Source: Escherichia coli (GTDB lineage: Bacteria; Pseudomonadota; Gammaproteobacteria; Enterobacterales; Enterobacteriaceae). From it: a stretch of DNA of 64,000 nt. The DNA lies in assembly GCF_003334785.1 (NCBI RefSeq), contig NZ_QOWV01000001.1. One strand, given 5' to 3'. The position numbers and the translations under genes were made by a program. A model generated the notes under the pieces. That model had not been told where the DNA came from, did not search any database, and was given only the letters and a program-made list of their open reading frames with translations. Below, in pieces: positions 21,303 through 22,023 of this stretch (the first letter of the stretch is position 1; each line of letters opens with the position of its first letter).

Positions 21303-21479
21303 AGCTTTAATCCTTATTGTTGATGCTTGTTGTGCCTGAAAATCAGGCGATTCGTCGTTTTAGTAAACAGTACGAACAGATAAACGGTTATTATAATCAA
21401 CCTGGCTGTGAGTAGCTATAGTTGCCAGGTCCGACCGGAGCAGGCTGCGGCAGGGGGGGCGCTTTTCCCCTCACCCTAA

Positions 21480-21502
21480 CCCTCTCCCCAGAGGGGCGAG
21501 GG
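21480..21502. repeat. GC-rich imperfect palindrome (ccctctcccc-aga-ggggcgaggg)
   Basis: 10-bp arms with 1 mismatch; related motifs (cccctaaccct, ccctcgctc...ggagaggg) recur within about 200 bp. Confidence 0.5.
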
Positions 21503-21582
21503 GACCGTATTGTGCAAATATTGTTACCCCAGCAACAAACAGGCTCATACAGCCCCTAACCCTTTCATGGCGATGGCTGGGA

Positions 21583-21728
21583 CGGTTCAGACCTTGCCGA
21601 ATATTCTCCAGCACCGTCTCCATGTTTTCACCACAACAGCTATTCGGCTCGGTCTGCCCCCTCGCTCTTTCAGGGAGAGGGTGACCGGCGGTTCAGTTCC
21701 TGCAGAATATTCTCCAGCACCGTCTCCT
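21583..21728. repeat. Two degenerate ~40-bp direct repeats 106 bp apart; copy 2 is the 3' end of ycjD, copy 1 a diverged duplicate downstream of it
   Basis: cggttcagaccttgccgaatattctccagcaccgtctcc (21583-21622) versus cggttcagttcctgcagaatattctccagcaccgtctcc (21689-21728). Confidence 0.7.
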
Positions 21729-22023
21729 CATTACAATCAATCTCGTTATTCCAGAAACGCAGCACGGTCCAGCCCTGCGACTCAAGCCAGCTAGTGCGCC
21801 TGGAATCATAGGCAACTGCTAAATCATGCTGCCCACCATCCAGCTCAACGACTACACGCGCCGAGCAGCAAGCAAAATCGAGAATGTAGCTCCCCACTGG
21901 ATGTTGACGGCGAAATTTGAAATCACTAAAACGTCGGCTGCGAAGATATCGCCAGAGCTTTCGTTCCTGCAAAGTGAGATTGCGTCTTAAATCACGCGCA
22001 TTTGATTTAATTTTATCTATCAC
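21670..22023 (-). CDS. ycjD: DUF559 endonuclease-like protein YcjD
   Basis: 117-aa ORF with GTG start, MIDKIKSNARDLRRNLTLQERKLWRYLRSRRFSDFKFRRQHPVGSYILDFACC...; ends ...LNRRSPSP. Confidence 0.85.
   Translation of the reverse strand: MIDKIKSNARDLRRNLTLQERKLWRYLRSRRFSDFKFRRQHPVGSYILDFACCSARVVVELDGGQHDLAVAYDSRRTSWLESQGWTVLRFWNNEIDCNEETVLENILQELNRRSPSP

Follow-up and report, generated by a model that had tools for sequence, protein, structure and literature searches.

Between fabI and sapF of Escherichia coli lies ycjD, a gene whose stop codon is separated from the fabI start codon by a spacer of 367 nt that contains a cluster of repeats. What this cluster is made of, and whether it belongs to the gene beside it, is the question that the locus raises. 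A preliminary description of the window (the whole K-12-like stretch of 64,000 nucleotides analysed here) saw in the cluster an iterated partial duplication or a decayed small selfish cassette rather than plain intergenic DNA. The last part of that judgement stands, as the spacer carries BoxC/PIT/TMECO elements and a tandem duplication. The features of the locus, in window coordinates, are as follows.

20514-21302, minus strand: fabI
21426-22019: segment exchanged for the ~8-kb eefRABCD operon in ycjD-negative E. coli, its fabI-side edge just outside the type-A element
21467-21502, minus strand: intact BoxC/PIT/TMECO element, type A, with one stem mismatch, reading CCCTCGCCCCTCTGGGGAGAGGGTTAGGGTGAGGGG
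21516-21621: distal unit of the duplication, in which the second copy of the ycjD 3' end has diverged (21583-21621) and the type-B element has decayed, with spacer
21553-21583, plus strand: decayed second type-B element, CCCTAACCC TTTCA TGGCGATGG CTG GGAC.., 13 nt shorter than in strain 042
21622-21727: gene-proximal unit of the duplication, with the ycjD 3' end, a type-B element and spacer; precisely deleted in GCA_045757685
21657-21684, plus strand: type-B BoxC/TMECO element joined to the end of ycjD, with the stop codon (21670-21672) in its first loop
21670-22023, minus strand: ycjD, 117 aa, predicted DUF559 Vsr-like PD-(D/E)XK nuclease
22020-22064: perfect hairpin with 17-nt arms, overlapping the ycjD start codon and part of a ~70-nt leader (22024-22090)
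22091-22897, minus strand: sapF

The spacer palindromes are BoxC/PIT/TMECO elements

The GC-rich palindromes noticed earlier are present (ccctctcccc-aga-ggggcgaggg at 21480-21502 and ccctcgctc..gggagaggg at 21659-21681), while the string said to occur twice as cccctaaccct is in fact a shared ccctaaccct, with 12 of 13 positions identical between 21474-21486 and 21554-21566. These palindromes belong to the dispersed BoxC/PIT/TMECO family and are not the decayed remains of a private cassette; the idea of a cassette nevertheless keeps some force from the finding, described below, that YcjD-type genes are bracketed by repeats across phyla. The name Box C reportedly goes back to the 1992 paper of Bergler et al. 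on envM (fabI), and the repeats are said to be treated in Bachellier et al. 1999 and in Hoyne & Maher 2000. TMECO is the more recent name for what were called BoxC and PIT elements (Holder et al. 2015, PMC4666352), and 23 copies, including five type-A/type-B inverted pairs, are recorded for MG1655 in the same study. Single strands of the consensus fold into a triplex in vitro, as judged by circular dichroism and NMR of oligonucleotides, and TMECO sites are hotspots of local variability at which the elements themselves are deleted or mutated (PMC4666352). Published tests found neither promoter, terminator or in vivo replication effects of PIT elements nor a stable triplex in vivo, and Holder et al. 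describe TMECO as always intergenic, without mobile-element association and with no function found (PMC4666352).

The best-preserved element of the locus is a literal member of this catalogue. The published pattern CCCTCNCCC N3-6 GGGNGAGGG N3 GGGNGAGGG is matched exactly at 21468-21502 on the minus strand, and 21467-21502 is TMECO no. 9 of MG1655 (1351204-1351239; Table 1, PMC4666352), identical in base and in coordinate with a window-to-MG1655 offset of 1329737 taken from the fabI coordinates. Within the 64-kb window the 38-nt BoxC core is found a single time, and none of 100 shuffles contains it. A 275-nt query of the cluster hits 75,808 places in 5419 E. coli genomes, with a median of 16 per genome, the dispersed copies corresponding to the BoxC parts only. 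The middle of the cluster (21530-21660) is not dispersed, being found at this locus only, at no more than two places per genome.

The other two copies are degenerate type-B members, and the one joined to ycjD is inverted relative to the type-A element. Its third block was lost in the K-12 lineage through a 12-nt deletion, and the element is complete in 042, TUM10828, E69, MFDS1022581, 2017-02-2CC and Escherichia sp. E1V33. The distal copy, a product of the duplication described below, also lacks the third block in K-12; its 042 and TUM10828 versions are matched by the TMECO pattern with up to three substitutions. Thus both type-B copies fail the pattern in K-12, where the third block is deleted or decayed, and pass it in other strains. 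The local instability, the inverted pairing of type A with type B and the decay of the kind termed 'mutated TMECO' are all typical of the family. In contrast to the published picture of a strictly intergenic, gene-free repeat, the ycjD stop codon here lies inside one element, and in many phyla such repeats accompany YcjD-clade genes.

A G·A mismatch is conserved in the stems of the commonest type-A elements. Vsr nicks DNA specifically at mismatches, and to connect the type-A mismatch with such nicking is speculation.

ycjD and its repeats form one unit that alternates with an efflux operon

The presence/absence polymorphism of ycjD that had been suspected is real, with about 3378 of 5426 complete E. 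coli genomes carrying the gene. Comparison of the fabI-sapF interval, as had been proposed for strains lacking ycjD, finds it occupied in the remaining ~2050 genomes (~38%) by eefRABCD, an ~8-kb TetR-RND-OMF-MFS efflux operon that replaces the ycjD unit. The eefRABCD/ycjD polymorphism is already published, with the same fabI-sapF alternation and the same 12-nt length variant at the ycjD 3' end; the passages on ycjD consulted in that paper contain no BoxC elements, tandem duplication or allele boundary at the outer edge of a type-A element (PMC12817139). Homology between the two alleles stops on the fabI side at about 21425-21450, just beyond the type-A element. These comparisons show that ycjD together with its repeats is a single unit that alternates with eefRABCD.

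At the other end of the gene, the perfect inverted repeat reported earlier is confirmed, with 17-nt arms at 22020-22036 and 22048-22064. Its role as a boundary of ycjD needs qualifying, as the hairpin is also retained next to sapF in the ycjD-less eef allele, with compensatory changes. In Kluyvera, Klebsiella and Enterobacter, the ycjD homologues have different neighbouring genes but are likewise preceded by a hairpin of related form and by the motifs TTCTGAA..TTCCAGAA and CATTCTGACAA. Since these leader motifs precede ycjD homologues where sapF is not a neighbour, the 22020-22064 hairpin probably belongs to the ycjD unit rather than serving as a simple sapF terminator. An Rfam scan of 20000-23500 returned only chance microRNA-like matches, which fell on this hairpin. 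The interval from the fabI promoter to sapF can be shown to be organized as one unit that comprises the leader hairpin, ycjD, the type-B element with the stop codon, a spacer and the inverted type-A element.

YcjD is a predicted Vsr-like nuclease

As had been stated, YcjD is a DUF559 protein (Pfam PF04480, E = 1.5e-49); it also matches NCBIfam PRK09767 and the structure PDB 3HRL (E = 1e-27). Eight residues are invariant in 75 homologues (D49, E60, D62, H66, R76, R89, W91 and N92). The Vsr-like active site is intact and its catalytic core invariant, and nuclease activity is predicted on this basis. The same fold, the same catalytic core and the invariant D..ExDG.QH motif are shared with Vsr, VsrA of Caulobacter and I-Bth0305I (PDB 3r3p), which are sequence- or structure-specific nickases and homing enzymes. 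Unlike these, YcjD has no partner cytosine methyltransferase and is not intron-borne. For a DUF559 protein of Caulobacter, a role as an enzyme of very-short-patch (VSP) repair has been suggested (PMC12907096), and the Vsr fold is also known in a homing endonuclease (PDB 3r3p, listed in PMC3424549). No YcjD match was found in the PADLOC library of defence systems.

YcjD homologues are flanked by three-block repeats across phyla

The joint organization of gene and repeats in E. coli raises the question of whether the two also occur together elsewhere. A scan with the YcjD protein, restricted to one genome per species, yielded 80 loci that represent its closest relatives (at least 45% identity). 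Placement between sapF and fabI is confined to Escherichia, and the homologues of different enterobacterial genera lie in differing genomic contexts. With up to three substitutions allowed, the TMECO pattern falls at the stop codon in 43 of the 80 loci and within 200 nt upstream in 18, against about six motifs elsewhere in ~505 kb of flanking sequence. Among loci that seemed to lack the motif, all 20 that were readable on both flanks carried taxon-specific variants of the three-block architecture (a hairpin plus a third G-rich block, in some with an extra hairpin in the second loop), and nearly all did so on both sides. These 20 come from Luteimonas, Pseudoxanthomonas, several alphaproteobacteria, Melainabacteria, a cyanobacterium and a bacterium of the candidate phyla radiation (CPR).

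The arrangement around the gene was assessed by comparing 160 nt upstream with 170 nt downstream and setting the result against 323 control window pairs. An inverted repeat above the 99th percentile of the controls flanks 38 of the 47 non-enterobacterial loci and 1 of the 28 in Enterobacteriaceae, a family that has both elements on the 3' side of the gene. Overall, the same three-block repeat, in taxon-specific sequence, flanks YcjD homologues at 85 loci belonging to many phyla.

Two further samples gave the same picture. In a tblastn search of a plasmid database, an independent sample, arms of 56 nt that are 95% complementary abut the gene exactly in Deinococcus proteolyticus, and three-block repeats, inverted or direct, flank the gene in Synechocystis, on a Klebsiella plasmid and in N. 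gonorrhoeae (the 3HRL homologue). Their orientation relative to the gene varies by taxon, being flipped in Deinococcus and Synechocystis and direct in Neisseria. Among 1.84 billion protein representatives we found 25,064 relatives of YcjD; of the best 150 of these, 66 have repeat-encoded C-terminal tails (PSPxPSP..GEG/GRG) and 26 have N-terminal extensions of this kind. At the level of sequence, these surveys show a physical link between YcjD-clade genes and three-block repeats that holds across phyla, suggesting that the selfish-cassette intuition of the preliminary description was nearer the mark than expected.

A proposed partnership between YcjD and BoxC

Three observations led us to propose YcjD as the cognate nuclease or nickase of BoxC/TMECO: the repeats bracket the gene across phyla, their sequence co-varies with taxon, and gene-less copies are scattered in the same genomes. 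Our preferred reading of the locus, to which we give a probability of about 0.6, is that it consists of BoxC/TMECO elements and one still-recombining tandem duplication, with ycjD and BoxC together forming a repeat-associated nuclease system. The broader claim that YcjD-clade Vsr-like nucleases are the cognate enzymes of BoxC/PIT/TMECO repeats, and hence a second repeat-enzyme partnership beside REPIN-RAYT, is more tentative and falls a little short of even odds; we infer the functional link from genomic association.

In mechanistic terms, the third G-rich block may fold back on the hairpin to give an intrastrand triplex, and YcjD would recognize the folded or extruded element. Nicking by YcjD followed by repair synthesis could then lead to copying, maintenance and local rearrangement of the repeats, and the ~100-nt type-A/type-B doublets of E. 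coli would represent the gene-less form of the ycjD unit.

The closest precedent is REPIN-RAYT, in which, as here, a gene present in single copy has its own type of repeat on its flanks, inverted doublets without the gene are scattered through the genome and repeat sequence co-varies with gene lineage; the low repeat numbers of ycjD-negative E. coli, in a comparison confounded by phylogeny, may be a further parallel. However, RAYT is an IS200-type HUH transposase (of the IS200/IS605-like tyrosine class), whereas YcjD is a ~110-aa Vsr-like PD-(D/E)XK protein of the DUF559 family with putative nuclease activity, and the three-block, triplex-capable element differs from a simple REP hairpin. Given this difference in enzyme, ycjD-BoxC is an analogue of REPIN-RAYT and not a member of it. 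BoxC/TMECO no. 9, its instability and the eef/ycjD polymorphism are already published; a literature search of incomplete coverage found no link between DUF559 or YcjD and BoxC/PIT/TMECO, and an earlier description is possible.

Gene-less doublets and repeat copy number in E. coli

Four of the five MG1655 pairs share one layout, which consists of GTC, a type-A element, a conserved spacer of ~27 nt, an inverted type-B element and AGAAAAC. In most other proteobacteria the gene is bracketed in this same topology, and the doublets therefore look like the unit without its gene, with the topology expected of empty sites. The doublet between hrpB and mrcB is a clean indel of ~100 nt between strains, and no target-site duplication was seen on comparing filled and empty versions of this one site. 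In another strain, an internal deletion at hrpB-mrcB has left a simple hairpin, as Holder et al. described. The doublet between ygfF and gcvP was set aside as a filled/empty comparison because the strains that lack it also lack ygfF.

Repeat number differs with the gene, the median count of repeat places being 18 in ycjD-positive genomes (10-27, n = 37) and 4 in ycjD-negative ones (1-14, n = 23). The comparison draws on an evenly spread sample of genomes that are not phylogenetically independent, and it involves few independent gene losses within E. coli. The ycjD-negative O157 strains keep 10-14 copies. Among the strains with published counts, ycjD status was checked for K-12, 042, KO11FL and O157, and the other strains of Holder et al. 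were presumptively assigned by phylogroup with the help of PMC12817139. The published TMECO counts are 19-30 in phylogroups A, B1 and C, 13 in strain 042, 10-11 in O157 and O55 and 1-2 in B2 (PMC4666352); they agree with the contrast between ycjD-positive and ycjD-negative genomes, a comparison confounded by phylogeny.

Alternative explanations for the association of gene and repeats

The main rival to a YcjD-BoxC partnership is that ycjD and its flanking three-block repeats make up an autonomous mobile or homing unit, decaying and immobile in E. coli, whose Vsr-fold nuclease cuts gene-less BoxC doublets and is copied in, or else mobilizes miniature elements (MITEs) in trans. Such an origin would account for the tight terminal inverted repeats at most non-enterobacterial loci, where units measure ~450-500 bp, for the shifting genomic contexts among enterobacterial genera and the patchy distribution of the gene, and for the behaviour of doublets as discrete indels. 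In-frame stop codons in 6 of the 80 genes, four of them inside the conserved domain, point the same way, and the homing endonuclease 3r3p (PMC3424549) provides a precedent for the fold. However, the gene is present in only one or two copies per genome where visible, many E. coli doublets stay unoccupied, and the one clean empty site shows no target-site duplication. True plasmids hardly ever carry the gene, which was found in 39 of 72,556 records, most of them from chromids or from chromosomes labelled wrongly, and PHROG phage protein families match YcjD only weakly. The resemblance to MITEs and their autonomous parents is similarly partial. The ~100-nt units have terminal inverted symmetry, conserved termini and insertion/deletion polymorphism, and a gene-bearing version has the same ends, but there is no recognizable transposase and the gene-bearing version is not multi-copy. 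By the usual marks of MITEs and insertion sequences, the inverted termini are thus present while a target-site duplication was not seen, on the evidence of hrpB-mrcB only. We consider an autonomous mobile unit unlikely, albeit the strongest of the alternatives.

Somewhat less probable again is a purely incidental neighbourhood, in which BoxC is merely unstable DNA beside ycjD, slippage produced the 106-bp duplication, and YcjD is an ordinary Vsr-like repair nuclease. The documented variability of TMECO sites (PMC4666352), the VSP repair role proposed for the Caulobacter protein (PMC12907096) and the persistence of BoxC copies in ycjD-negative strains are all compatible with this explanation. 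The same placement of repeats beside the gene is nevertheless found in one phylum after another, the repeat sequence co-varying, and control windows do not show it. Chance adjacency cannot account for this, and a purely incidental neighbourhood is hard to reconcile with such a pattern.

A 106-bp tandem duplication that still recombines

Within the repeat-associated system that we favour, the Escherichia locus has an additional layer of structure. The direct repeat noticed earlier (21583-21621 and 21689-21727) does recur at a spacing of 106, with an identity of 35/39 (90%) in place of the ~85% given. It is not the last ~40 bp of ycjD, as had been thought, since 19-57 nt separate the repeated stretch from the stop codon, downstream at 21670-21672. 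Two full head-to-tail units of 106 nt (21516-21621 and 21622-21727) resemble each other throughout, with 77 of 110 aligned columns identical (70%), and the 39-nt direct repeat is therefore the best-kept part of a 106-bp duplication. The unit-to-unit alignment scores 80, compared with -29.8 +/- 9.0 (maximum 0) in 1000 shuffles (z about 12). Equal length, head-to-tail order and similarity along the whole length are the marks of a tandem duplication, and the locus has all three; Tandem Repeats Finder called no array in 21400-21800 because the units are too diverged. What had been described as iterated is thus a true partial duplication of the ycjD 3' end, but a single tandem event with two units.

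In each unit, a GC-rich palindromic element and spacer accompany ~45 nt from the 3' end of ycjD. A head-to-tail event in the E. coli lineage copied these last ~45 nt of ycjD with the type-B element and the spacer, after which the units diverged and the third block disappeared from both type-B copies in K-12. The duplication is carried by 3318 of the 3378 ycjD-positive genomes (98%). Its distal unit is confined to such genomes, at no more than two places in each, and is missing from strain 2017-02-2CC and Escherichia sp. E1V33. E1V33 has one unit only, and 2017-02-2CC has a single unit with breakpoints within the type-B element and a YcjD protein identical to that of MFDS1022581, in which the duplication is present. 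A third state is the exact 106-nt loss of the proximal unit, by which ycjD becomes joined in frame to the distal copy and its product acquires another C-terminal tail, of 40 residues; this protein is encoded on 16 contigs. As strains with a precise loss of either unit exist, the units remain recombination substrates, and they are live ones that alter the YcjD C-terminus. Other genera also have tandem arrays of the gene-proximal element; in Pseudenterobacter, for example, five copies follow one another with a period of 60 nt. A second copy of the gene 3' end, sought downstream of homologues in other taxa, is strong only in Escherichia loci, which makes the duplication lineage-specific. The tandem duplication and its collapsed alleles are small new details.

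Two further explanations concern the cluster alone. The distal copy might be the relic of an older ycjD allele ousted by an incoming cassette, after the model of the orphan C-terminal tips of Rhs and contact-dependent inhibition (CDI) toxin loci, rather than a local duplication. The modest overall identity of the K-12 copies (just 70%) and the divergence among E. coli ycjD alleles (up to 15%) would allow for this. A displaced 3' end is nonetheless very improbable, as the units are joined exactly head to tail with the non-coding spacer included, the MFDS1022581 units are more alike mutually than either is to the K-12 units, strains with an identical YcjD protein differ by one unit only, and the distal copy occurs nowhere else in any genome. 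More far-fetched still is that the cluster encodes a small protein (a 50-aa ORF at 21471-21623 on the minus strand) or a structured RNA acting as a ycjD 3'UTR or terminator element, for although the ATG-initiated ORF begins exactly at the duplication junction and the region can form long hairpins, a 1-nt indel breaks the frame in 042, TUM10828 and E69, the RNA folding z-score of the cluster is an unremarkable -2.1, Rfam has no match, and PIT elements were inactive as terminators or promoters in published tests (PMC4666352). The junction ORF was accordingly rejected as a gene, its frame not being kept across strains.

Implications

Over three decades of cataloguing in E. coli, BoxC/PIT/TMECO repeats have been published without a function, an origin or an associated gene, and YcjD is a conserved but functionally uncharacterized K-12 protein whose proposed link to BoxC can be tested directly. 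The eefRABCD/ycjD polymorphism is under clinical discussion, and the duplicated units sit at its edge. If the partnership proposed here is correct, an orphan K-12 gene would gain a function, as would a family of repeats that has lacked an explanation since the early 1990s, with a range that extends from Enterobacteriaceae to Deinococcus, cyanobacteria and CPR bacteria. YcjD would then be a second nuclease that lives with its own population of repeats, built on another enzyme fold and directed at a non-B DNA structure.

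The 106-bp duplication and the ycjD reading frame

The junction between the two head-to-tail duplication units coincides with the start of a short reading frame, and loss of the proximal unit alters YcjD itself:
window 21471-21623, minus strand: 50-aa ATG-initiated ORF, beginning exactly at the duplication junction (METVLENIRQGLNRPS...)
L103 (GCA_045757685) 701-1144: chimeric 147-aa YcjD, protein P0002

The frame of the 50-aa ORF is disrupted in E. coli strains 042, TUM10828 and E69, and it is therefore probably not a gene. In strains from which the proximal unit has been lost, the ORF sequence forms the YcjD C-terminus. 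The chimeric P0002, encoded by 16 contigs, results from a deletion of precisely 106 nt between the duplication units.

At the opposite end of the gene lies a further element:
window 22020-22064: perfect hairpin at the ycjD start

Within this hairpin, sigma-70-like hexamers (CTGACA and CAGAAT separated by a 16-nt spacer, with a TG extension) occur on both strands. PMC12817139 refers to public data that show antisense transcription and translation at the ycjD 5' end.

Repeat arrays and locus variation

Multiplied repeats or genes also accompany YcjD homologues at other loci:
L020 (Pseudenterobacter timonensis) 4340-4747: five direct type-B-like elements with a period of ~60 nt, 3' of the ycjD homologue
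L057 (Gastranaerophilales MAG) 4001-5407: two DUF559 genes ~1 kb apart

The L020 array is followed by an inverted type-A element, and smaller arrays of direct type-B-like elements are found at four further homologue loci (L008, L014, L031 and L034). The second DUF559 gene of L057 sits between two three-block repeats of its own. L037 holds seven repeat copies within 8.3 kb. L023, on a contig titled Chryseobacterium sp. 18061, encodes a YcjD homologue with 64% identity alongside BoxC elements of the enterobacterial type, and looks like a misassigned or contaminant enterobacterial contig.

In the plasmid database, four hits (H71, H72, H84 and H85) are records of 2.2-4.9 Mb labelled as E. coli or N. 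gonorrhoeae plasmids; these are evidently chromosomes, and the apparent occurrence of ycjD on plasmids is therefore inflated.

In the ygfF-gcvP region of E. coli NC101 (L099, phylogroup B2), ygfF and the BoxC doublet are both missing and bglA abuts gcvP, an example of the larger 'region missing' class at TMECO sites. In the O157:H7 strain ECP19-198 (L001 5314-6123; L004 15857-18959), the annotation gives the RND permease gene in the eef efflux operon as a pseudogene with a frameshift.

A retained mismatch in type-A elements

The commonest E. coli TMECO variant, type A 'mm' (13 of the 23 in MG1655; window 21467-21502, for example), keeps a G·A mismatch in its hairpin stem, where CCCTCGCCC is paired with GGGAGAGGG. 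Vsr is a mismatch nickase, and the retention of this mismatch beside the gene for a Vsr-fold enzyme may be meaningful.
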